A stretch of DNA of 64,000 nucleotides, taken from the NCBI GenBank assembly GCA_963798085.1, contig CAWCRS010000007.1, positions 640,001 to 704,000 of the forward strand, given 5' to 3'. Positions 11,783-45,501 of the stretch are shown one piece after another. The notes beneath the pieces are model-generated. The model was not told the origin of the DNA, did no database searches, and saw only the letters and a list, made by a program, of their open reading frames with translations. Made by a program: the position numbers and the translations under genes. The stretch's first letter is position 1. Each line of letters starts with the position of its first letter. Source of the DNA: an uncultured Gemmatimonadales bacterium (GTDB taxonomy: Bacteria; Gemmatimonadota; Gemmatimonadetes; Longimicrobiales; RSA9).

Positions 11783-12547
11783 ATGGAAGCGGAAACGCTG
11801 TGGGACGACTACCAGCGCGGCGGCAATGAAGCTGCGCGCCAGCGGCTGCTCGCACGGCACCTCCCATTGGTCCACCACGTCGCGAGGCAGGTCATGCGGA
11901 CGCTGACGGTGGACGTGGAGCTGGATGACCTGGTGAGTGCCGGCAGCATGGGCCTGATCAACGCCATCGACAGCTTCGATCGGTCGCGAGGCCTGGCTTT
12001 CAGCACATACGCGGCGCCACGTATTCGGGGCGCGATCCTGGATGACCTGCGGCGCTCGGACACGGTGCCGAGGTCGATCCGTCGCAAGCAGCGGCAGCTG
12101 GCCGCGGCGACGGAAGCGCTCTCCGGCGAACTGGATCGCACCCCCATGGATCGGGAGATGGCGGACAAGCTGGGCATCGACATCGACACACTGTGGCGCT
12201 GGCGGTCGGACACCAACGAAGCGATCCAGGTATCGCTGGATCAGCCGATCAACACCGGCCCGGGTCGCACGGCCATGCCCGCGGACCTGATCGAGGGTGC
12301 GAGCGGCCGGCTCACCGAAGAGATCGTCAACCACCGCGAAGAAGCCTCCGTATTGCGCGACGAGATCCTGCGCCTCAAGGAGCGCGAGCGGATCGTGCTC
12401 AGCCTGTACTACTTCGAAGAGCTGAAGCTGCACGAGATCGCGCGGGTTCTGGGCCTCACCGAGTCGCGCGTTTCACAGATCCGCTCGAAGGCACTGTCCA
12501 CACTGCGTGGACGCATGGCCCGACTGCGCGAACCCGGGGAGTGCTGA
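11783..12547 (+). CDS. fliA: RNA polymerase sigma-28 factor (FliA/WhiG family); alternative start 11567
   Basis: DDLVSAGSMGL, FSTYAAPRIRGAILDDLR, VPRSIR, LYYFEEL..HEIARVLGLTESRVSQI. Confidence 0.93.
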   Translation: MEAETLWDDYQRGGNEAARQRLLARHLPLVHHVARQVMRTLTVDVELDDLVSAGSMGLINAIDSFDRSRGLAFSTYAAPRIRGAILDDLRRSDTVPRSIRRKQRQLAAATEALSGELDRTPMDREMADKLGIDIDTLWRWRSDTNEAIQVSLDQPINTGPGRTAMPADLIEGASGRLTEEIVNHREEASVLRDEILRLKERERIVLSLYYFEELKLHEIARVLGLTESRVSQIRSKALSTLRGRMARLREPGEC

Positions 12548-27517: not shown

Positions 27518-29637
27518 ATGGTGATGCAGTTCTCCTCCAGGATCCATCAATCCAGATCGCAGCGCCTCCGTCGCGGCACGGGCGCGCGCGGGATCATTAT
27601 CGCCCTCTGCGCATTCCTCGGAATCTCTCTGTACCGGCTGCAGATCGCGGGCGGTGAGTCATTCGCGCTGCAGGCGCGCCAGAATCGAATGCGACCGGTG
27701 GTGGTCCGCGCTCCACGCGGCACCATCTACGATCGCCACGGCCGCATTGTCGCGGAAAACATTGTCGGCTATCAGGTGCTGCTCATGCCTGCGTCCATGG
27801 ATACACTGCGCGCGCAGGTGGGCAGGCTCAGTGGCGTGCTGGGCCTCGACAGTGCCGACGTCGAGGCTGCGTTCAAGCGCTACCGGCGTGCACCGCATCT
27901 GCCCATGGAGGTCATGCGCGACGCGCCGCCCGAGGCTGTGGCCCGCCTCGAAGAGCGGCGCTTCGAGTTCCCTGAGGCGCTCGTCCAGGAGTACCCCAAA
28001 CGCCGCTACCCGGCCGGTCCGGCCATCGCCCATTTCATTGGCTACGTCTCGGAAATCGGGGAAGCCGATCTCACCCGACCGCAATACGAGGGCTACGAAC
28101 CAGGCCGCTGGATCGGCAAGGCCGGCCTGGAAGCGCAGTATGAAAAACGCCTCGGCGGCGAACCCGGCGTACGCCAGCTCGAGATCGATGCACGCGGCCG
28201 CATCAAGCAGTGGCTGCCCCCCGAGCTGGGCCGCCCCGCCGTGCCCGGCCAGGACCTGCAGCTGTACCTCGACCTCGATCTGCAGGAGTTCGTCGCCCAC
28301 GTCTTTCCCAAGGATTTCACCGGCGCGTTCATTGCCCTCGATCCCAAGACGGGCGGCATCCTGGCGTACTACAGCAATCCGACCTTCGACCCCAATGACT
28401 TCATTGGCGGCGTCGACGCGGATCTTGTGGAAGCAGCTGAACGACGATCCCAGGAAGCCGCTGCTCGATCGCGCCGGCGGCTCGGGACAGCCGGCGGCTT
28501 CAACGTGGAAGCTGGCGGTCGCCGCAATGGCGCTGGACCAGGGCGCAATCAAGCCCGACGAGTACATGCCGATCGCCTGCACGGGGGGCATGAGCTACGG
28601 TGGCCGCTACTGGCACTGCCATTCTCGCTTCGGGTCACGGCAAGCAGAACCTGATCGAAGGCATCAAGAACTCCTGCAACGTCTACTTCTATCAGGTGGG
28701 TCTGCGCATCGGACTGGACCGGTTCCTGAAGACCGGCACACGACTGGGCTTCGGCAAGCGCACGGGCGTCGACATCCCGAGCGAGATCGACCCGAATTTC
28801 CCCGAGGACCGCAGCTACTGGACGAAGAAGAAGGGCTACGCGGCACAGGAAGGCGAAGTGCTGTCCATGGCCATTGGCCAGGGTCCGATCACGATGACCG
28901 CGCTCAAGCTGGCGCAGATCTACACGGCACTGGTTCGACCCGACGGTCGCGTTCCGGCACCGCGTTTTGCCATGGATGCCGGACCGCCCGCGGACACGTT
29001 CCACCTGAACCTCGAACCGCGCAATGTGTGGTTCCTCGAGGCCGGCATGCGCCGCGCCCTGGGACCGGGCGGCACTGCCGCGCTGAGCCGGCTCCAGAAC
29101 TGGGCGCTGATCGGCAAGACCGGAACCGCACAGAATCCACCGCACAAGGCGCACGGCTGGTTCGTGGGCATGGGTGGACCCAAGGACGGCGAACCGGAAA
29201 TCGCCGCGGTCATGTTCATGGAATTCGCCGAGCACGGCGCGCTCGCCTCCGGCTATGTAGCCGAGGCCATCAACTTCTACCTCAATCGCAAGTACGGACG
29301 TCCGTTCGATGGCTGGGCCACGCCACGCTTCCGCATGGCGAAGGGTCTGCCCGTCAACTGGAATTTCTCTTCGCCCATCATCGACCCGCCCATGCCCGCC
29401 GAGACCATCGTCAATGCGCAGGCGCCGCCGCCGGACAGCCTGAGGAGCGCCGTGGCGGCGGTGGACAGCACAAAGCCGCTGGTGGGCCAGGAAGAGGGAC
29501 CAACGCCACCGCCCGATTCCATCATACGACCGGCCGGCGCAGCGCGGGGACCGGTGCACGCGCCAGCCTCGCCGGACTCGGCGTCCCGCGCAGGCAGCGC
29601 GCGCACGCGTCCGGGCAACCGTCCGCGCGGCAACTGA
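27518..29637 (+). CDS. mrdA: Penicillin-binding protein 2; frameshifts near 28420 and 28630
   Basis: APRGTIYDR, IGKAGLE; STWK, SCN and KTG catalytic motifs spread over shifted frames. Confidence 0.88.
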
Positions 29638-32420: not shown

Positions 32421-34922
32421 TTACCGGATTGTGGCGTCGCTCCGGTAGTAGTCACCCAGCAGGTGCTCCGAGAAGTACTCCATCATCATGTGGTTGAAGT
32501 AGGGCTGCATGTCGCCGTAGCCGTGGGGCTTGCCCGGCAACATCATGAAGTCGAAGCGCTTGTTGGCCTTGATGAGTTCGTTCATGAGCCGGATCGTGCC
32601 GGCCGGGTGCACGTTGTTGTCCATGTCGCCGTGCGCTAACATCAGGTTGCCCTTCAGGTTGGCGGCCAGCTCGGCGTTGGTGGGCACGTGGATCTCGAAC
32701 TTCACGTCCTGCTCCTGTTCCTGAGCCGAAGCGTCGGACTGGCCATCGTTGCCACTGCGGTCGACGACCGTTCCCTTCTTCTGCGTGGCCACGATCTTGA
32801 GCCCGTGATACTGCTCGCTCCAGTTCTGGTTGTAGACATTGTTGTCATGATTGCCCGATGATGACACGCCCACCTTGAAGAAATCGTTGTAGGGCGGCAG
32901 CATCATCGCGGCCGCGGTCATGAAGCCGCCGCCGGAGTGGCCGAAGATGCCGACCTTGTCGAGGTCGATCCAGGAAAAGCGCGCGGCCAGCTGCTCGATG
33001 CCCGCCTTCTTGTCCGCCAGACCGTAGTCGCGGAGGTTGAAGTAACCGTAGTTCTGGTAGGCGTTCGAGCGCAGCGGATTGCCGCCGCGATTGCCGATCT
33101 GGATCACGATGAAGCCGAGCGCCGCGAGACGCTGCTCCACGTTGTTGCCGCTGAACGTCGCGCTGACCTCTTCCGTCTGCGGGCCCGGATAGACGTGGGC
33201 AATGATCGGGTACTTCTTCGTGGAATCGAAGTCGAACGGCTTCCACATGTTGCCGTAAATGTCGGTAATGCCGTCCGCCGCCTTCACCACGAAGCGCTCC
33301 GGCGGCTTCCAGCCCAGCTCTTTCAGCTTGCTGACATCCATTTCAGCAAGCGGCATCACTGTGGCGCCCGTGGCATCGCGGATGACCGCCTGGTTGGGCA
33401 GGTCGGGGCGCGAGAAGTTGTCGACAATGTAGCGCTTGCTGGGCGACAGCTGCTCGTTGTGCTCGCCCTCACCCGCGTCCAGCAGGGCGAGGCCCGTGCC
33501 ATCGAGGCTCACACGGTAGAGATGGTGGTAATATGGATTCTCTCCCGGCTCACGGCCCACGCCGCGCACGTACAGCACGCCGCGTACGGAGTCGACGGCG
33601 AGGATGTTGTCCGCGCGCCATTCCCCTGAGGTGACGGGTCCCTTGAGCGTCCCGTCATTGCTGTAGAGGTAGTAGTGCCCCCAGCCACTTCGCTCCGACC
33701 ACCAGAGGAAATCACCGCCCGCCTTCACATAGCGCGCGTTCTGGCGCTCGAGGTTGGCGTTCTCCACGCTCTCGGTTATGAGCGTCTTGATCGTCTGCGA
33801 CGGCATCGCCACATCGATCATTTCCATGTTGCGTTGCAGCCGGTCGCGACGCGTCAGGCGCACATGATCCGAGCCGGTGCCGTTCCAGTGAACATCGAAG
33901 AGTCGCTGGTCCTTCCATTTCGCGACGTTGATCGGCGCGACCGCCTTCTCGCCCCGGTGATAGAAATACAGTTCCTGCTGCGGCACGTTCTCCTCGCCTG
34001 GCATGGCGTACTTGTAGGACACGAGGACGGGCCGCGGCTGCGCCAGCACATTGACGAGGTACAGCTCCTTCACCTTGCGCGTGTCCTCACGCGTCACGAC
34101 AAAGGCCTTCGAGTCAGGCGACCAGGTGACCTGCGCGCGCACACGCGGGTCGCGTGACCGCGACTGCTGCTGCTCGTCCTGCTGGTCTTCCTGCTGCTGC
34201 TGCTGCTGTTGCTGCTGCTGCAACTGGTTCGCCTGCGTCGTGTCGCGGGCGCCGAAGCTGTGATACTGCTCGCCATCCGTGCTCACCTGGATGGTATCGC
34301 CGCTCTTGACCTCGACGACGTACAGGTTGTGATCGCGGGCGAACGCAAAGGCGGTACTGTCCGGCGAGTAGTTGCGGAAGTTCACATTGCCACGTCCGCC
34401 ACCGCCGAAGCCACCGCCGCCCCGGCCGCCGCCGCGGCCGCCGAAGCCGGGAACGCTGTCACGCACCGCCCGCCCGATGTGCTTGAGAGTCTCGCCCGCC
34501 AGGCTCCATTCGTAGCGCAACGAGTCCACGTTGAAACGGATCGACTTGTGGTCGTCCGTAAACACGACGTTGGTGAACGGCAGGTTGAATGCGTCGTACG
34601 GCTTGTGGTGCAGCGTCGAGAGCTGCGTGGCGAGCTTGGCCTGATTGAAGAGCGGCTTCTTGGTCTTCGTGATGGGCACAACCAGATAGAACGTCGATCC
34701 GGTGTGATCCCGCCAGTTGTACCAGAGTGAATCGCTCTCGCCAATGAAGCGCGGCTGCACGTTGTTGCTGTAAATGATCTGCCGCACCTGTGCATCGTCG
34801 AACTTGTTGCTCAGCTCCCAGTTGGCGCGATTGACGTGCGCCTGCTGGGCACGAGCCTGCGCCACGCCAATGAGCAGCATCGCCGCGGCCGCGAACGTGG
34901 TTGTCCGCCTGGGAATGTGCAT
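32421..34922 (-). CDS. S9B dipeptidyl peptidase IV family protein, secreted
   Basis: YPGPQ, GHSGGG nucleophile, HGDMDNNVH, catalytic H; signal peptide; internal poly-Gln tract. Confidence 0.93.
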   Translation of the reverse strand: MHIPRRTTTFAAAAMLLIGVAQARAQQAHVNRANWELSNKFDDAQVRQIIYSNNVQPRFIGESDSLWYNWRDHTGSTFYLVVPITKTKKPLFNQAKLATQLSTLHHKPYDAFNLPFTNVVFTDDHKSIRFNVDSLRYEWSLAGETLKHIGRAVRDSVPGFGGRGGGRGGGGFGGGGRGNVNFRNYSPDSTAFAFARDHNLYVVEVKSGDTIQVSTDGEQYHSFGARDTTQANQLQQQQQQQQQQEDQQDEQQQSRSRDPRVRAQVTWSPDSKAFVVTREDTRKVKELYLVNVLAQPRPVLVSYKYAMPGEENVPQQELYFYHRGEKAVAPINVAKWKDQRLFDVHWNGTGSDHVRLTRRDRLQRNMEMIDVAMPSQTIKTLITESVENANLERQNARYVKAGGDFLWWSERSGWGHYYLYSNDGTLKGPVTSGEWRADNILAVDSVRGVLYVRGVGREPGENPYYHHLYRVSLDGTGLALLDAGEGEHNEQLSPSKRYIVDNFSRPDLPNQAVIRDATGATVMPLAEMDVSKLKELGWKPPERFVVKAADGITDIYGNMWKPFDFDSTKKYPIIAHVYPGPQTEEVSATFSGNNVEQRLAALGFIVIQIGNRGGNPLRSNAYQNYGYFNLRDYGLADKKAGIEQLAARFSWIDLDKVGIFGHSGGGFMTAAAMMLPPYNDFFKVGVSSSGNHDNNVYNQNWSEQYHGLKIVATQKKGTVVDRSGNDGQSDASAQEQEQDVKFEIHVPTNAELAANLKGNLMLAHGDMDNNVHPAGTIRLMNELIKANKRFDFMMLPGKPHGYGDMQPYFNHMMMEYFSEHLLGDYYRSDATIR

Positions 34923-35221
34923 GGTCGGATTCTCCGTCGGTCAGTACGCTGTGACTCGCGACGCCGTAGTCCGCGCGGACGGCTGGATCGCAAGCGCGGC
35001 GGCCGGTGTCGTGGTGGGACGGTCAGCGTGAGGAAGATAGGGGGTTGTCGCCCGCTACGGGAGTATACAGGTCGGCATGCAACGGACCCGGGACGGATGG
35101 GCCGGCGAGGCGGGGCGGAACCCGCTGCTCGGGGATGGACCGGCGCGCCCACCCTCGGCATCCGCCAGAGACCTTGCAGATTGCCAGCCAAAACGGTGAG
35201 CGGCGTCGTCGTCCACAATTC

Positions 35222-35279
35222 ATAAATCATTCATGAGCAATAACTTATATGAATCACACCCGGTGGTGCGATTCCTGCT
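35222..35279 (+). promoter_or_regulatory. IHF-like palindrome (35222-35248) plus sigma54 promoter (35264-35279)
   Basis: ataaatcatt-N7-aataacttat; TGGTGCGATTCCTGCT matches TGGCACG-N4-TTGCW spacing. Confidence 0.6.
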
Positions 35280-35347
35280 CGAACGACGGGTGCCCCAGGC
35301 ACGAGTGCGTCCGGGGCCTGTCTGATTCCTGACCCGAGAGGTGAGGC

Positions 35348-35950
35348 ATGCGCCGACGCTGGCACATACCCGGGGCCGCGGCCGTTCTGGCCATCGCGCT
35401 GTTCTGCCTGAGTTGCGACCGAAGCTCTCCCACCGACACACCGCTGAATCCGCCCGCCAGTGGAGCCCTGCTGGGGCTGCCGCGTCTGGGCGGAGCGGAT
35501 CCGACGCCGCAGCTGCCACGCGGGATGCGGTTCATCGAGGAGGAGCGGTCCGGCGGTGGCCAGGATCTGGTAACGGGCCTCTTCGGTCTGCTGGGCGGTG
35601 AGCTGCACCTGAACGGCGAATCACTGCTGGTGCCGGAGGGCGCGGTGCTGCGGTTGACGCTGTTCACGATGGAGACACCGGACACGAAGGTCATCAATGT
35701 CAACCTGAGTGCGCTGACGGGCGATCTGCTGCGCAACGTGCTGTCGCTGCTGGGCCTGTTCCAGAAGCCGGTGACGGTGGAGTTGTCGTATGCGCACGCG
35801 ACGAACGTCACGGATCCGGGCAAGCTGGTGATCGTGCGACTGCTGGACGACGGCAAGGTCGAGGTCCTGCCGACGCGTGTGGACCGGCAGCGCAAGGTAG
35901 TGTCAGCGCAGCTCGATCACTTCTCGAAGTACGCAATGGCATCCAACTGA
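35348..35950 (+). CDS. Putative lipoprotein with ZU5-like domain and terminal HFS autoproteolysis motif
   Basis: Signal ending CLSC; GGEL....SLLVPEGAV and FQKPVTVELSY are ZU5-like; ends LDHFSKYAMASN; GAGGTGAGG RBS. Confidence 0.75.
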   Translation: MRRRWHIPGAAAVLAIALFCLSCDRSSPTDTPLNPPASGALLGLPRLGGADPTPQLPRGMRFIEEERSGGGQDLVTGLFGLLGGELHLNGESLLVPEGAVLRLTLFTMETPDTKVINVNLSALTGDLLRNVLSLLGLFQKPVTVELSYAHATNVTDPGKLVIVRLLDDGKVEVLPTRVDRQRKVVSAQLDHFSKYAMASN

Positions 35951-35953
35951 CGC

Positions 35954-37609
35954 ATGGAACGCCGGCTCGAGTTGCACAGCGCGCGCGACACCGAGGAGAC
36001 ACTGGAGTCGCTGGTCGAGCAGGGCCGGGCCGCCGAACGCGCGGGCGCATGGGATGAAGCGCTGCGCGCGTTCGACGGCGCGTTCCGCAAGCTGCGCCGC
36101 GAGCACGGAGCGGAGCGCGCGGCGGAGCTGCTGCGCTGGATCGGGACGGTGTTCCGCAATCGCGGCGAGCTGGAGAATGCGCACGAGTTGTACGAAGCGA
36201 GTCTGGCCGTTGCCGAAGCCGCAGCGCTGCCCTACCACATCGCCTCCGCGCTCAACTGTCTGGCCATCATCGCGCAGTTTCGCGCCAACGTGGATGATGC
36301 GGAGCAGCTCTACCTGCGCGCGAGTGAACTGGCGCAGCAGGCCGGTGACGACCGGCTGGCGGCCATGATCGATCAGAACGTAGGAACGCTGGCTAACACG
36401 AAAGGCAGCTACGACGCGGCGCTCGGTCACTATCGCTCGGCGCTCCGCCGTTTCCGCCGTCTGCAGGATGAAGTCGCCGCGGCGTGGGTGCTCAACAACA
36501 TGGGCATGGCGCACGTCGACCTGGGGCAGTGGAACAACGCGGTGCGCGCGTTCGACGAAGCCTTCGAGCTGGCGGATCGCCAGCGCGACACGCACCTGAT
36601 CGGCACCATCGAGCTGAACCGCGCCGAGCTGCATCTCAAGCGCGGTGTTGTGGGCGATGCGCGCGACTGCTGCGACCGCGCGTTCGAGGTGTTCAGCCGG
36701 GTGGGCTCGCAGAGCGGTCTGGGCGAGGCCTACAAGTTCTACGGTGTACTCTACCGCGAGATGGGCAAGCCGGGTCTGGCCACCACGCATCTGCGCAACG
36801 CCATCGAAACGGCAGTGGGCTGTGAGGACCGGCTGCTGGAAGCGGAAGCGCGAAGCGAGGCTGCGCTGCTGCATCTCGATAACGGCGAGAATCGCACCGC
36901 GCTCGAGTGCATGAACCGCGCGCACCGGCTGTTCACGGACCTGCGCGCGCGTGCCGAGCTGCTGGATGTGGATTCCCGTCTGGACCGGCTGGAGGAGACG
37001 TTCCTGAAGGTGGTGAAGGCCTGGGGCGAGTCGATCGAGTCCAAGGATCGGTACACCGCGGGTCACTGCGAGCGTGTGGCTGACTACGCCTGTCTGCTGG
37101 CGGAAGCACTGGGCTTCCAGGGTCGCGATCTTACGTGGATGCGCATGGGCGGGTTCCTGCACGATGTGGGCAAGATCGTGGTGCCGCCCGCGATCCTGAA
37201 CAAACCGGGAAAACTGAGTCCCGAGGAATTCGACGTGATGAAGACACACACCACGGCTGGTGACGAGCTGACTACGCCGCTCAACTTTCCGTGGGACATC
37301 CGGCCGATCGTGCGCAACCACCACGAACGCTGGGACGGCACAGGCTATCCCGACGGCCTCGAGGGAGAGGACATCCCGCTGGTGGCGCGCATTCTGTGCG
37401 TCGCGGATGTCTACGACGCGCTCACGACGGCGCGCAGCTACCGGCCGGCGCTGCCCGCGCTCGAGGCCCTGCGCATCATGGAGCGCGAGTCCGGCAGCAA
37501 TCTGGATCCGAAGATCTTTCCCATCTTCCGCCAGCTGATTCTGGAGCATGCCGCCCAGCGCGGCGGCATGGCACGGCTGCGCACCCCGGGCGCGTTCGCC
37601 GCCGCCTAG
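35954..37609 (+). CDS. TPR-repeat + HD-GYP phosphodiesterase
   Basis: N-terminal TPR array; YTAGHCERV, LHDVGK, HHERWDGTGYP, ADVYDAL, RSYR; no signal or TM segment. Confidence 0.92.
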   Translation: MERRLELHSARDTEETLESLVEQGRAAERAGAWDEALRAFDGAFRKLRREHGAERAAELLRWIGTVFRNRGELENAHELYEASLAVAEAAALPYHIASALNCLAIIAQFRANVDDAEQLYLRASELAQQAGDDRLAAMIDQNVGTLANTKGSYDAALGHYRSALRRFRRLQDEVAAAWVLNNMGMAHVDLGQWNNAVRAFDEAFELADRQRDTHLIGTIELNRAELHLKRGVVGDARDCCDRAFEVFSRVGSQSGLGEAYKFYGVLYREMGKPGLATTHLRNAIETAVGCEDRLLEAEARSEAALLHLDNGENRTALECMNRAHRLFTDLRARAELLDVDSRLDRLEETFLKVVKAWGESIESKDRYTAGHCERVADYACLLAEALGFQGRDLTWMRMGGFLHDVGKIVVPPAILNKPGKLSPEEFDVMKTHTTAGDELTTPLNFPWDIRPIVRNHHERWDGTGYPDGLEGEDIPLVARILCVADVYDALTTARSYRPALPALEALRIMERESGSNLDPKIFPIFRQLILEHAAQRGGMARLRTPGAFAAA

Positions 37610-37639
37610 CCGATAACAGCCTGTCAGACGAGAGCCATC

Positions 37640-37903
37640 ATGGCGCCGTCCGACCGGATCCGACTCCTGTGGTTGCGCGGATCGCTGTTCGCCACCGCGC
37701 TCCTGTCTGCGCTCGTGCTGCAGGGTTGCGGCCGGCGCGGGCCGGCAGACTCGCCACTGTCGCCTCCGGTGGCGAGCGCCGATGCCGCGGCATCCCGTGA
37801 GTCAGGCGACACACCCGCGTCCGGTCGCTCGCAGGGATTCACCTTCGTCGAGGAATACCGCGCGCCGGGCTCCGCCTCGGTCAGCACGATGGCCTCCAAC
37901 TGA
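37640..37903 (+). CDS. Small lipoprotein, ZU5-less paralog of 35348-35950, ending MASN
   Basis: Lipobox LQGC; shares P.D.PL.PP(.)AS, G..F.EE.R..G and MASN-stop with the upstream gene. Confidence 0.75.
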   Translation: MAPSDRIRLLWLRGSLFATALLSALVLQGCGRRGPADSPLSPPVASADAAASRESGDTPASGRSQGFTFVEEYRAPGSASVSTMASN

Positions 37904-37909
37904 TCCGGG

Positions 37910-39601
37910 TCAACGGCTGGCGGTGCGCGGCTGGGCGTCGGCCAGCCACCAGCTTCCCACATTGATGAACGCGCCACGCACATCCATAACGGCCCCGCGC
38001 AGTCGCGCGCGTGCGGCGTAGAGATTCGGGACGTACCAGAGGAAGGTCCAGGGCTGCTCGTCCCGGATGATGCGCTGCACCCGGTGCCAGCGCGGGATCG
38101 CGTCGCGGCGATCCGTGAGCGTGGCCAGCGTGTCGAGCGTGGCATCCACGGTGGCGTTGTGAAACGAGGCGAGCTGGTATTCGCCGTTGATGGCGGCGGA
38201 ATGGAAGGTGTCGCGCAGGTTGATGCGGAAATCCGCGTCCCACGCCATGAGCACGGCGTCGAAGTCGCGGGCCGGGCTCGAGATCTGGCCGATGAGCGTG
38301 GTGAACTCGACGGGTCGCACGCTCATGCTGACACCCACGTTCGCAAGATCCGCCTGGATCATTTCCGCGACGTCACGGGTGAAGGCGTTGCTCGTGGGGA
38401 TCTTCAGCTCGATGCGGAAGGGCCGGCCGTCCGGCAGCCGCAGCTTGCCGGAGGCGTCGGGGCGCAGACCCGCTTCGGCGAAAAGAGCGCGCGCGGCCGC
38501 CGTGTCGTACGGCAGCGGGCGCACGGAATCGGGGAACGCCCAGTGGAACGGGCCGATCGGACCGGAGGCCAGCTCGCCGTGGCCGCCGCGCAGCACCTGC
38601 AGGATCTGCGGACGGTTGATCGACAGGGTGAGCGCACGCCGCACCCGCGCATCATCCAGAGGTCGGCGCTTTCCGTTCCAGCCGATGAAGTGGTACTGCG
38701 TCGCCGCTTTCACGATGGGCACGACGCCGGCCTCGCCCCGGAGTCGCGTCAGATCCTCCGCGCGCGGCGCGAGAATCAGGTCCGCGTTGCCGGTGAGCAG
38801 CTCGGTCACCTGCGCGGTGTTCTCGCTGATGACTCGCCACACCACGCGGTCCAGGTGCGGCCGGCCGCCCAGACCCGCCGGAAAGTCGGGATTGGCGTCG
38901 AACACCCAGCGATCGCCGGCGCGATACTCCGCGAAGCGGAACGGACCGTTGCCGATGGGCGCGTGATTGAATCCGGCCTGACGCATGCGCGCGGGCGGAA
39001 TCGAATCCAGCGCGTGCTTCGGCATGATGGGCAGGAACGCCCATGTCAGCAGCGGATCGATGAAGCGGTCGAGTGTGAAGCGGACGGTGAAGGAATCCAC
39101 CACGGATACGGACTTCCAGTGCATGAGATCATCGGCATTGGGAAAGCCGCTGGCCGGATCGCGCGCCCGGTCGAACGTGAATGCCACGTCCCATGCGGTC
39201 GTCTTCGGTCCATCGCTCCAGCGCACGTCGTCGCGCATGTGGAAGACCAGCGCGGTGTCGCCCTGCCAGTCCCAGCTGCGCGCCAGCGCGGGCTGAAAGC
39301 CGCCCTCCACATCCAGGGATACGAGTGGCAGGAAGAGCGCGTGCAGCAGGAGGTCCTGCGTGTAGGACTCGGACGCAATGAACGCATTCATGGGTCCGAC
39401 GTCGTTGGGGCCGGCGATCACCAGCGTACCACCATCCCGCGGCGCGGCATCAGCGGCGGACGCGACCGGCAGCGGCGCGTTGTCCCGGCACGCTGTGCCC
39501 AGCGCGGCGGTCAGTGCGAGGAGCAGCCGGCCGAGCGTAAGAGCCGGGTGCATGCGACCGGCGGAAGCTGCGTCCGCCGCACGAAATCGGAATCCGCCCA
39601 T
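37910..39601 (-). CDS. Peptide ABC transporter substrate-binding protein (SBP family 5, OppA/DppA-like); alternative start 39553
   Basis: Lipoprotein signal LGTAC, PALARSW, WSDG..TAWDVAFT, PIGNGPF, RVRRAL...INR. Confidence 0.9.
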   Translation of the reverse strand: MGGFRFRAADAASAGRMHPALTLGRLLLALTAALGTACRDNAPLPVASAADAAPRDGGTLVIAGPNDVGPMNAFIASESYTQDLLLHALFLPLVSLDVEGGFQPALARSWDWQGDTALVFHMRDDVRWSDGPKTTAWDVAFTFDRARDPASGFPNADDLMHWKSVSVVDSFTVRFTLDRFIDPLLTWAFLPIMPKHALDSIPPARMRQAGFNHAPIGNGPFRFAEYRAGDRWVFDANPDFPAGLGGRPHLDRVVWRVISENTAQVTELLTGNADLILAPRAEDLTRLRGEAGVVPIVKAATQYHFIGWNGKRRPLDDARVRRALTLSINRPQILQVLRGGHGELASGPIGPFHWAFPDSVRPLPYDTAAARALFAEAGLRPDASGKLRLPDGRPFRIELKIPTSNAFTRDVAEMIQADLANVGVSMSVRPVEFTTLIGQISSPARDFDAVLMAWDADFRINLRDTFHSAAINGEYQLASFHNATVDATLDTLATLTDRRDAIPRWHRVQRIIRDEQPWTFLWYVPNLYAARARLRGAVMDVRGAFINVGSWWLADAQPRTASR

Positions 39602-39843
39602 GGTTTCGACCTTCGGATGCGCGACGAGAGCGGCTGCGCGGGGAGCAGCCGGCGTTCGGGGAGTGAGCCGTCTCTTCAGTCTCGGCAGTCCCGGCCGGCT
39701 GGCGCAGTGGAAGAAGCGCCCCGGGGAAGGGGCCGGAGCTCCGGGCACGCGGTTGCATTGCAGGCCTGGCCGGCAACACCGAAGTTGCGGTGACGTGCGA
39801 CTGCGGGACCTCCGGTCCCGATCCCTGCAACCGACTCCGGATC

Positions 39844-41391
39844 ATGAGGACCTGCGCGGGTCTCGGCGCCCTTCTGCTGGGCAGTGCAGTCGCGTGTGCC
39901 AGGCCGCAGCCGGTATCGCTGGTATCGGTGGAACGCGTCATTACGCACGACAACCGGGCGGCCGCGGGCCGCCTGCGCAATGACGAGTTAGAGATCCACC
40001 TCGAGCTGCGCGCCGGCGAATGGTACCCGGATTCGCCATCGGGGCCGGCTGGCGTCGTGCAGACCTTCGCGCTCGAAGGCGGGCCGCCGCTGATTCCCGG
40101 ACCGCTCATCCGCGTGCGCACCGGCACGACCATCCACGCGACCGTGCACAACCCGCTCCCCGATTCGACGCTCGTGGTGCACGGCCTGCACACCCGGCCC
40201 GGTTCTGGCACCGATTCCCTCGTGGTCCGTCCCGGCGAGACGCGGGACGTGCGGTTCCCCGCGGGCCAGCCGGGCACCCACTTCTACTGGGGCTCGACCT
40301 CGCACACGGACATGGAGTCCCGACTCGGCAGCGACAGCCAGCTGGCCGGCGCGTTCATCATCGACCCCGCAGACGGGCCGGCGCACGAAGACCGCGTGTT
40401 CGTCATCGGGCAACTGGTTCGATCCCCCGGATTCCGCAGGCCCGCCGCCCGTCGTCGAGCGCGATGTGATGGTGATCAACGGACGGTCGTGGCCATGGAC
40501 CGAGCGCTTCGACCTGCTGCAGGGCGATACCATCTACTGGCGCTGGCTGAACCCCACGCCCAACGCACACCCAATGCACCTGCACGGTTTCTTCTACGAC
40601 GTCACCAGCCGCGGCAGCTGGGCGGCAGACACGGTGTTAGAGAGGGGGCCGCGCCAGGTGGTCACGGAAACCATGCTGCCGGGTTCGACGTTCGCCATGC
40701 GCTGGGTCGCGGAAAGGCCGGGCAACTGGCTGTTCCACTGCCACTTTGCGTTCCACGTGTCGCATTTCCTCTCGTTCCGCAAGATTCCGGACCCCGAGGA
40801 TGCCGATCCGCCGGGCGTGTTGGAGCATTCGGCCAGCAGCATGCGCGGGTTGATCCTGGGCTTGCACGTGCGGGAGCGGAACGACCGTCCGGGCGAGGCT
40901 GTCAGGGGGACCGAAAGCGCGGCCGCGAGTGCGGCGGACACGGCGACGCCGCCGCGGCGGGTCCGCCTGCTGGTGGACGCGAAGAATCCGGGACCCCGCG
41001 AACAGTTCGGTTATGTCGTGCAGAACGGGGCGGAACCGGCGCGTGACTCCGTCCTCGCGCTTCACGCCGCCACGCGCCGGCACGTTCATCTACCATTCGC
41101 ACTCGAACGAAGACGCGCGTGTTCATCGCACTGGCGCGGCGGGCGCCACCGGCAGGGAAATGGGTGGGACGTACCGCCGCGGACTACCAGCTGGCGGAGT
41201 GGCGCGCGGTGGCGAAGGATGGCGCCGATCTGCCCGCCGCGCAGCAGGTGAGCGGGCCGGCCTGGATCGGCATGGGACCGGGCGAGACCGCCGACTTTGC
41301 GTTCACACCCACCATCGCCGGCGACCTGACGATGCAGGTCGTGACGCAGGTCGAGGGGTGGGTGCTCGATCTGCCGCTACACGTGCGGTAG
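39844..41391 (+). pseudogene. Multicopper oxidase, frameshifted and apparently internally deleted
   Basis: HGLH, HPMHLHG, WLFHCHFAFH, GTFIYHSH and TADFAFTP occur in different frames; the second half is compressed. Confidence 0.7.
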
Positions 41392-44192: not shown

Positions 44193-45501
44193 TCACACCA
44201 CGTTGGCCGGTCTCCGCGCACTCTCGACCTGGAACTCATCGGTCAGCCGCGCCGCAAGCTGTGTGCCCTCTCTCTCGCGCAGGAACATCATCAGCAGCAG
44301 ACCGACCACGAAGAAGAGGAGGATGCTGGACATGGCGAGGCGGTGACTGCCGGTGATGCGCAGGGTGGTGGTGTAGAAGAGCGGGCCGAGCAGGGACGAC
44401 ATCTTGCCGGAGAACGCGTACAGGCCGAACAGCTCCGCCTGTTTGTGCTCGGGGACCAGTTTGGCGAGCAGGCTGCGGCTGGCGGACTGGTTGGGACCCA
44501 TCATGATGCCGATCAGGGTGGCGGCCAGCCAGAAGCCGGCGACGGTCGTCGTCGCCACGCCAATGATGGTGGCAATGGCGAGGCCGACGAGGGTGATGAT
44601 CATGGTGCGCTTGCCGCCGATCCTGTCGTCGACGAAACCGAAACCGAACGCGCCAATGCCGGCGGCCACGTTCAGGCCGATCGCCATCACCAGCACCTTC
44701 TCGAGGGGCATGCCGAGCACGGCGCCGGCGTAGATCGCGGCCATGTCGATCACGGTGATGAGGCCGTCGTTGTAGATCATGTGCGCGATGATCAGCCTGG
44801 CGGCTTCGCGCAGCTCGTGCAGGTGGCGGATGGTGACGGCCAGGCGGTGGAAACCCTGGCGCACGTACATGCCGAGCGGCGCACTGCGGCGCTCGGCGCG
44901 CTCCTTCACGCCGAAGAAGATGGGCAGCGAGAACACGAAGTACCACGCGGCCACCAGCAGGATGGTGGAGCGCACGTTCAGGTAGTTCGTGTGCGGCACC
45001 CAGCTCTGCACCATGCCCAGGCCGAGCGCCAGGCAGAGCAGGCCGCCCACGTAGCCGAGGAAGTAGCCGTAGCCGGAGATGCGGCCGATGTTCGAGCTGT
45101 TCGAGAGCTCCGGCAGGAAGGCGTTGTAGAAGACGTTCGACGCCTCGAACCCGGTGTTAGCGAAGATGAAGAGCACGGCCGCCGGTCATGGCCTGGCCGG
45201 GGCCCATGAAGAAGAGGGCGACCGTGAACGATGATCGCCTGCACCGCCGAGAGCACGAGGAAGAACTTCTTGCGGCCGGAATAATCCGCGATGGCGCCCA
45301 GCACGGGCATGAGCAACGCGACAATGACCGCCGAGATGTTGAGGGCGGTGCCCCAGAGCACAGTGCCCGATGTTGCTGCCGGCGATCACGTCCGTGAAGA
45401 AGCGGTTGAAGATGAACGTCACGATCGAGCGTGTTGAACGCCGAGCTGCCGAAGTCGTAGAGAGCCCAGCCCAGCACATCGCGGCGCGTGAAGTCGCTCA
45501 T
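44193..45501 (-). CDS. MFS transporter (UMF1/Atg22-like); about four frameshifts in the 5' part
   Basis: GWALYDFG, LGAIAD.SG.KK, FYNAFLP, GRISGYG, YNDG, SASRSL, FGLY..GK. Confidence 0.85.

Follow-up and report, generated by a model that had tools for sequence, protein, structure and literature searches.

A small lipoprotein gene behind a TPR-HD-GYP gene in Gemmatimonadota: a truncated paralog of a ZU5-like lipoprotein, and a separate family of ZU5-less mini-lipoproteins

Does a lipoprotein that has lost the folded domain of its relative still act as a signal? This question is raised by a small gene, here called B, in a 64,000-nucleotide stretch of DNA from an uncultured Gemmatimonadales bacterium (the window). 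Gene B and gene A, which encodes a larger lipoprotein, flank the TPR-HD-GYP gene C, with gaps of 3 nt between A and C and 30 nt between the stop codon of C and B (Table 1). A preliminary description of the window had taken B for a diminutive paralog of A that keeps the signal peptide, two short motifs and the terminal MASN without the ZU5 domain, and had proposed that this tail is the functional unit.

Table 1. Positions of the genes, gene parts and mini-lipoproteins (minis). Genes A, B and C, their parts and their neighbors are numbered in the window; minis are numbered in their own contigs or loci.
Feature	Position	Strand	Remark
Gene A, 200-aa lipoprotein, ZU5/GAIN-like fold	35348..35950	+	fold from a model; HF/S motif 35918-35926; tail SKYAMASN 35924-35947
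Gene C, 551-aa TPR-HD-GYP protein without signal peptide	35954..37609	+	putative peptide receptor and cyclic-dinucleotide phosphodiesterase
Gene B, 87-aa lipoprotein-type ORF	37640..37903	+	derives from a paralog of A by an in-frame deletion of 120 codons; predicted export
B signal peptide and lipobox LQG/C30	37640..37729	+	sequence motif; residue +2 is Gly (Asp in A)
Pro-rich block PADSPLSPP of B	37742..37768	+	6/9 identical to A28-36
GFTFVEEYRAPG of B	37835..37870	+	matches A59-70, the strand before the ZU5 core of A; score typical of the family
SASVST of B	37871..37888	+	zone with the deletion junction; best junction after T83
MASN-stop of B	37889..37903	+	protein-identical to the end of A
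GCCGATAA, sigma28 −10-like	37609..37616	+	overlaps the C stop codon by its first G; promoter unsupported
Family-5 (peptide/nickel-type) solute-binding lipoprotein	37910..39748	-	convergent on B; true start probably further 3'
DPP IV-like S9 peptidase	32421..34922	-	divergent from A; same position in L238 and L239 only
Mini L063/L313	G031:C46:21473-21667	-	
Mini L105	5606-5800	-	
Mini L110/L317	G084:C78:5040-5243	-	
Mini L252	293-505	+	
Mini L023	1070-1294	-	
Minis known as proteins			P0002-P0010, P0019-P0026, P0029, P0033, P0035-P0042

The ORF of B starts with ATG, with GAGAG located 5-9 nt upstream, and neither a stop nor an indel interrupts it. Lipoprotein-signal models matched residues 12-35 with scores below their cut-offs, and the predicted mature chain consists of 58 aa with MASN at the C-terminal end. 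The codon use of B was gene-start-like (62% of 1562 gene starts scored higher), and its score exceeded those of 99.7% of 3320 shifted frames. A chance ORF or an antisense shadow was ruled out by this codon use and by the homology to A. The warning that gene callers could easily miss B proved unfounded, since the exact protein is already present in NCBI and ENA; one record only contains it. Atlas features on B reached a best score of 0.88 and were uninformative, and Rfam gave no match in 34800-38200. In a search of sequencing runs, no RNA run was among the matches listed; two DNA runs had small shares, and none of their pieces covers B. Neither a close strain nor covering reads that could date the deletion were found.

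The exact GCCGATAA reported upstream of B is present, and its role as a sigma28 promoter found no support. This sequence occurs twice in the window, where 1.12 copies are expected by chance, and 84 times in the genome, and the −35 region of B matches TAAAGTTT at 3/8 positions. A sigma28 promoter for B was rejected because of the chance-level frequency and the poor −35, despite the presence of two FliA-type genes in the genome (window 11846-12517 and contig C3). A perfect sigma28 match, TAAAGTTT-N11-GCCGATAA, lies at G000:C3:737635 on the minus strand and is the sole 8/8 among the 84 −10 copies. Neither a sigma70-like site nor a terminator of relevance to B was found.

The paralogy of A and B was confirmed by alignment, a genome search and shuffles. 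Residues 18-83 of B aligned with residues 11-76 of A without gaps (35% over 66 aa), and A was the best non-self match of B in the whole genome (tblastn E 1e-5; next 0.13). The local score was reached by none of 5000 shuffles, and the same held for the mature parts alone. All three blocks described as shared are present and colinear, but the third is secure for MASN-stop alone; there, atggcctccaactga and atggcatccaactga are, as stated, a single synonymous base apart. Of the 100,565 genomic stop-to-stop segments of at least 30 aa, 4 end in MASN-stop: besides A and B, these are a third ZU5 paralog, encoded on contig C1, and a single shadow frame. B is as long as A less 120 codons, with 7 extra residues at its N-terminus. 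B is a genuine truncated paralog, and a singleton.

What was lost became clear from the modeled structure of A. The model of A (pLDDT 82.6) matched the ZU5 domain of ankyrin-B over residues 71-200 (VIA Z 11.6, rmsd 2.3, 112 aligned) and the GAIN domain of CD97 (VIA Z 9.9), in agreement with Foldseek, and Pfam ZU5 reached only E 0.18. H191 and F192 are invariant in 28/28 aligned homologs and are followed by S/T and the last strand; A has both the fold and the HF[S/T] motif of the ZU5/GAIN/MAIN proteins. As had been described, the ZU5 core is missing from B, which retains A1 to about A76 and the last 4-9 residues without A77-192. The β-sandwich is accordingly absent, and so is the H-x-[S/T] motif before the last strand, where GSASVST replaces DHFSKYA. 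The LLGL-type linker motif found in A and its two closest orthologs was also lost.

A junction after T83 of B scored 9.2 bits and one after A79 scored 5.9 bits, a modest preference of 3.3 bits. The family consensus at the start of the ZU5 core is S/Q-V/A-T/S, and SASVST scores best there; this segment probably derives from the start of the core, a fit slightly better than an origin in the tail. If the junction follows T83, MASN-stop alone comes from the tail, and it is probably the only tail-derived part of B. The Ser at −8 has a codon identical to that of A. The pre-ZU5 strand of B (GFTFVEE) scored 6.2 on the family matrix, where A itself scored −2.1, the leave-one-out median was 7.2 (n = 54) and 19 true minis scored at most 4.5; the level of B was reached in 1% of shuffles. 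A strand at the full-length level is expected if the ZU5 domain was present until recently. Its retention in B, although only full-length proteins would need it, suggests a late domain loss, to which the junction placement and the occurrence of full-length ZU5 paralogs downstream of receptors (4/92) also point.

The copy itself is older. Over 71 codons, 22 residues are identical between B and A, 14 of them through different codons, and the identities at the three codon positions are 0.48, 0.55 and 0.34. In a neutral null with matching DNA identity, 13.8 identical residues were expected (P 0.0013); third-position identity was 24 vs 33 (P 0.006), and MASN-stop was retained in 0/10,000 neutral runs. 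These values indicate that B was long a protein under selection. By dN 0.83 and dS 1.50, the copy is old, with synonymous sites near saturation. A tree neither recovered nor rejected the grouping of A with B (p-AU 0.34). B resembles its own A most (32%; 15 others, 16-28%); synonymous differences between B and A (16/25) are no lower than those between A and its orthologs (16/32 and 13/28), and a clearly lineage-specific duplication was therefore dropped.

No ortholog of B was found: only B itself was recovered among 17 database candidates, and 60 related genomes contained no full-length match. A profile (A6) searched against 401 phylum genomes matched B alone in full, and its other 28 matches were partial signal-peptide matches with no TPR-HD neighbors in their loci. 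Absence or decay in relatives had been named as the mark of a deletion relic. B is indeed absent from the two closest syntenic loci, L238 and L239 (TPR 84% and 81%), and B itself is undecayed. Both loci have the order peptidase, A, C and binding protein with the tail SKYAMASN; where B would be, L238 has a gap of about 30 nt and L239 an unrelated gene on the opposite strand. Neither A nor C had a match in the one congeneric genome (91% complete). A search for B-like minis ending in MA[ST]N or MG[ST]N without Tyr left 23 true-stop candidates from at least 150 family-wide pattern matches, many of which end in TGG, and none of the 23 is a short lipoprotein. A general role of the DPP IV-like neighbor was unsupported, its synteny being confined to L238 and L239. 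Between this divergent peptidase and A, positions 35218-35254 are AT-rich and contain an inverted repeat, ATTCATA/TATGAAT (23-nt spacer), which is not conserved in L238 or L239.

A is more widespread, with matches in 21/61 related genomes, and the TPR part of C matched in 33/73 family genomes; all homologs with names belong to Gemmatimonadota. With full-length C as the query on genome contigs, generic HD-GYP matches dominated and 3/80 loci were full-length. A census was made of 103 full-length receptor entries after 8 duplicate loci had been dropped. Directly upstream of the receptor were a ZU5 gene in 56 entries and a short precursor in 4 by the filter (a fifth, L252, was found by hand); the remaining receptors were preceded by another long ORF (26), another receptor (3), nothing recognized (8) or a contig edge (6). 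A family-5 binding protein lay within the locus of 37 of the 103 entries.

Short precursors led to a separate family. A scan of receptor loci that was blind to the tail yielded five short exported proteins without ZU5, all with R/K-Y octapeptide ends, and profile searches enlarged this set to 28 ZU5-less mini-lipoproteins, which by sequence are a family of their own, new here. They are exported-type proteins of 58-96 aa, nearly all with a lipobox Cys, with a variable Pro/Ala/Ser linker and an end consisting of a basic cluster followed by [GST][RK]YAM[AG]A[NS] or SKYSVI[LFI]F. R/K-Y is found in 28/28 minis, and the mean identity among them was 57% for tails and 29% for linkers (91 pairs); the tail conservation of the later members is partly circular because the profile that retrieved them included the tail. 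One such search gave 14/20 matches with these tails, B counted, and 6 unrelated ones. The context is known for 5/28 minis and is a TPR-HD-GYP locus in 5/5: four minis directly precede the TPR-HD-GYP gene, and the fifth follows such a gene, flanked by two ZU5 genes. In a quick tree, the three receptors behind YAMAA[NS] minis formed a 98-supported clade, and C grouped apart from the mini-associated receptors, in another clade. Full matches of the mini profile in 401 genomes of the order were confined to its four genomic members, and the family is therefore uncommon.

Two further sets of ORFs were observed. In G016 (C103), the locus L109 contains a 44-aa ORF with a signal, the end HFSGYAMAIG and no ZU5 core (L109:3514-3648) and a 36-aa ORF containing RRRRARYALG (L109:3668-3778). 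The congeneric G084 has ZU5 and a mini there, and L109 adds another example, next to B, of shrinkage in which signal and tail persist. L309-L312, L360 and L379 encode divergent lipoproteins ending in GF-TKYAMASN or F-TGF[AG]MA[ST]N, in which the His of HF/S is lost and the tail is kept; L309-L312 adjoin a sigma54-activator-like gene and/or a TPR gene.

B shares a lipobox and a length below 100 aa with the minis, but not their ends. R/K-Y at −7/−6 is replaced by V-S, no basic residue occurs at −12 to −7 (1-4 in 14/14 minis), and B scored 3.1 bits on the mini profile, on which the four genomic members, themselves in the profile, scored 57-82 bits. On these grounds, B is not a member of the mini family. 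In ZU5 tails, position 3 is aromatic in 78/79 cases, and it is Ser in B, which is without the R/K-Y part. Among relatives, positions 5-8 vary and position 3 does not, so that B retains the variable, self-matching part. A complex prediction for the TPR domain of C (alignment A2) with residues 57-87 of B scored 0.02 and gave no answer on binding. The proposal that the tail is the functional unit thus gains support for the system from other genes, since the minis keep the octapeptide while their linkers diverge, which supports the view that the tail is the signal. For B itself the proposal is weak: MASN alone is certain and both mini hallmarks are missing.

In the system suggested by these genes, A would cut itself at HF/S, as MAIN domains do, and free the octapeptide SKYAMASN. 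The peptide would be imported, possibly via the neighboring family-5 binding protein, and would bind the Asn-lined TPR groove of C (invariant N101, N142, N182 and N321), tuning c-di-GMP hydrolysis by the HD-GYP domain, whose motifs are intact in sequence. Minis would supply the same peptide through cleavage at the basic cluster. A third ZU5-like lipoprotein of the genome, outside the window at G000:C1:223544-224476 (L022), ends in HFSKYAMASN, and no TPR-HD gene occurs within 1.5 kb of it. A single close TPR-HD-GYP receptor is encoded in the genome, and this lipoprotein gene is a possible orphan source of the same peptide.

How, then, is B to be explained? We give an even chance to the reading that B is a recent deletion relic of an old full-length ZU5/HF/S paralog. 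A second full-length copy would once have stood downstream of the TPR-HD-GYP gene under purifying selection, and an in-frame loss of 360 nt, probably recent, would have taken S-K-Y-A and the cut site along with the ZU5 core. Co-transcription with C, export and lipidation of B likely persist; having no self-cleavage site, basic processing site or R/K-Y, B most likely releases no active signal. Since B lost its middle and most of the putative signaling peptide, a leftover is more likely than a second signal, and the shrunken pair in L109 resembles this case. Against a relic, B shows no decay, and the in-frame cut spares the whole tether, coincides almost exactly with the folded domain and retains just the self-specific end, for which the random chance is roughly estimated at 1 in 100; the loss of the LLGL-type motif and the changed +2 residue are compatible with adaptation after the deletion. 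The same clean excision, and a lipoprotein ORF that is intact and follows the receptor gene after 30 nt, would fit a maintained decoy, antagonist or partial ligand, whose MASN end would sit in the TPR groove, or on the binding protein or the peptidase, and leave the receptor untriggered. This is possible, if rather doubtful. The purifying-selection signature and the retention of the variable self-matching part of the tail after loss of the conserved R/K-Y speak for it, as do, by analogy, cCF10/iCF10 on PrgX and duplicated phr intermediates; however, a full-length past explains the selection signature equally well, a decoy would have no evident use for the pre-ZU5 strand, and B lacks a release site and is confined to one genome. 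The composite in which Gemmatimonadota possess a peptide-to-c-di-GMP system, with an octapeptide from ZU5 self-cleavage or mini proteolysis read by TPR-HD-GYP proteins, and in which B is an evolved decoy without R/K-Y, is in our view unlikely.

The earlier suggestion of a second agonist fares worse. As a convergent equivalent of the minis with MASN as the minimal active core, B would share their gross architecture (lipobox, low-complexity linker and tail), their presence in receptor loci in all known contexts would be in its favor, and its last eight residues begin with Ser, as the cleaved tail does. Yet it keeps with certainty MASN only, lacks the R/K-Y and basic cluster kept by all minis, scores poorly on their profile, keeps a domain-associated strand, is absent from the closest loci and belongs to a receptor of another clade, and this role is accordingly quite improbable. 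An assembly error, with a full-length second ZU5 gene in the cell, would be more surprising still. The genes at 27518-29637, 39790-41391 and 44193-45501, which from their translations we take to be PBP-like, multicopper-oxidase-like and MFS-like, are each split over frames, suggesting indel errors in the assembly, and B stands in a single record with no read set covering it. These visible errors are small frameshifts, however, and an in-frame loss of 360 nt with no evident repeat differs from them in kind.

As a relic, B would be of little interest of its own, and the ZU5-less family is the more important finding. The minis are a natural experiment that separates a tail acting as a structural strand from a tail acting as a signal, and they define short synthetic peptides, making RRNPP-like, c-di-GMP-linked signaling a testable hypothesis in a Gram-negative soil phylum. 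B would serve as a natural variant without K-Y for mapping the activating residues.

The literature searched contained no report on this gene pair or the minis, and none of its papers combined tetratricopeptide, peptide and quorum sensing with Gemmatimonadota. Such proteins may be listed in supplements, that of the MAIN preprint among them, or in journals behind a subscription, which lay outside the search. The autoproteolytic ZU5/GAIN/MAIN superfamily comprises the ZU5 domains of ankyrin and UNC5, the GAIN domains of adhesion GPCRs and the microbial MAIN domains, which cut between F and S of HFS, according to the accessible text of the sources (PMC3482391; bioRxiv 10.64898/2026.05.12.724683). 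A shares the fold and the HF/S before the last strand, and B has neither; unlike those proteins, A has only 8 residues after the site, and its gene is paired with a gene for a cytoplasmic TPR-HD-GYP protein. The accessible text of the MAIN preprint (bioRxiv 10.64898/2026.05.12.724683) contains 0 occurrences of ZU5, lipoprotein, TPR, quorum and Gemmatimonad.

The arrangement also resembles the RRNPP systems (Rap-Phr, NprR, PlcR and PrgX) in that a small precursor, here predicted to be exported, is encoded beside a cytoplasmic TPR protein, with a short C-terminal peptide, an often adjacent peptide-type binding protein and invariant Asn in the TPRs. It differs in its occurrence in Gemmatimonadota rather than Firmicutes, in its lipoprotein precursors and in a 551-aa receptor with HD-GYP output. 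The accessible part of PMC10075063 defines RRNPP pairs by a propeptide of 10-100 aa with a Sec/SPI signal, a receptor of 250-500 aa with TPRs, and adjacent genes. The TPRs and the adjacency are found here; B at 87 aa falls within the propeptide range and A at 200 aa does not, C is longer than the receptor range, and the signal of B is by motif of the lipoprotein type. No RRNPP receptor was among the structural neighbors listed for the TPR part of C, 60 of 75 in one search and the top ranks of 500 in another; LGN/GPSM2, kinesin light chain and OGT were among the matches listed. Duplicated phr genes (PMC5199041) and the cCF10/iCF10 pair on PrgX (PMC5552905) are, as far as the accessible text of these papers goes, likewise a second, diverged signal-gene copy in the locus of one lineage only; both of their peptides are complete and tested, whereas B, known from sequence alone, has lost the conserved half. 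The minis are similar to B in lipobox, length and low-complexity linker, have a tail like the strand after HF/S, and lie beside TPR-HD-GYP genes. Unlike them, B keeps the pre-ZU5 strand, follows a receptor of another clade and appears to descend from its own A.
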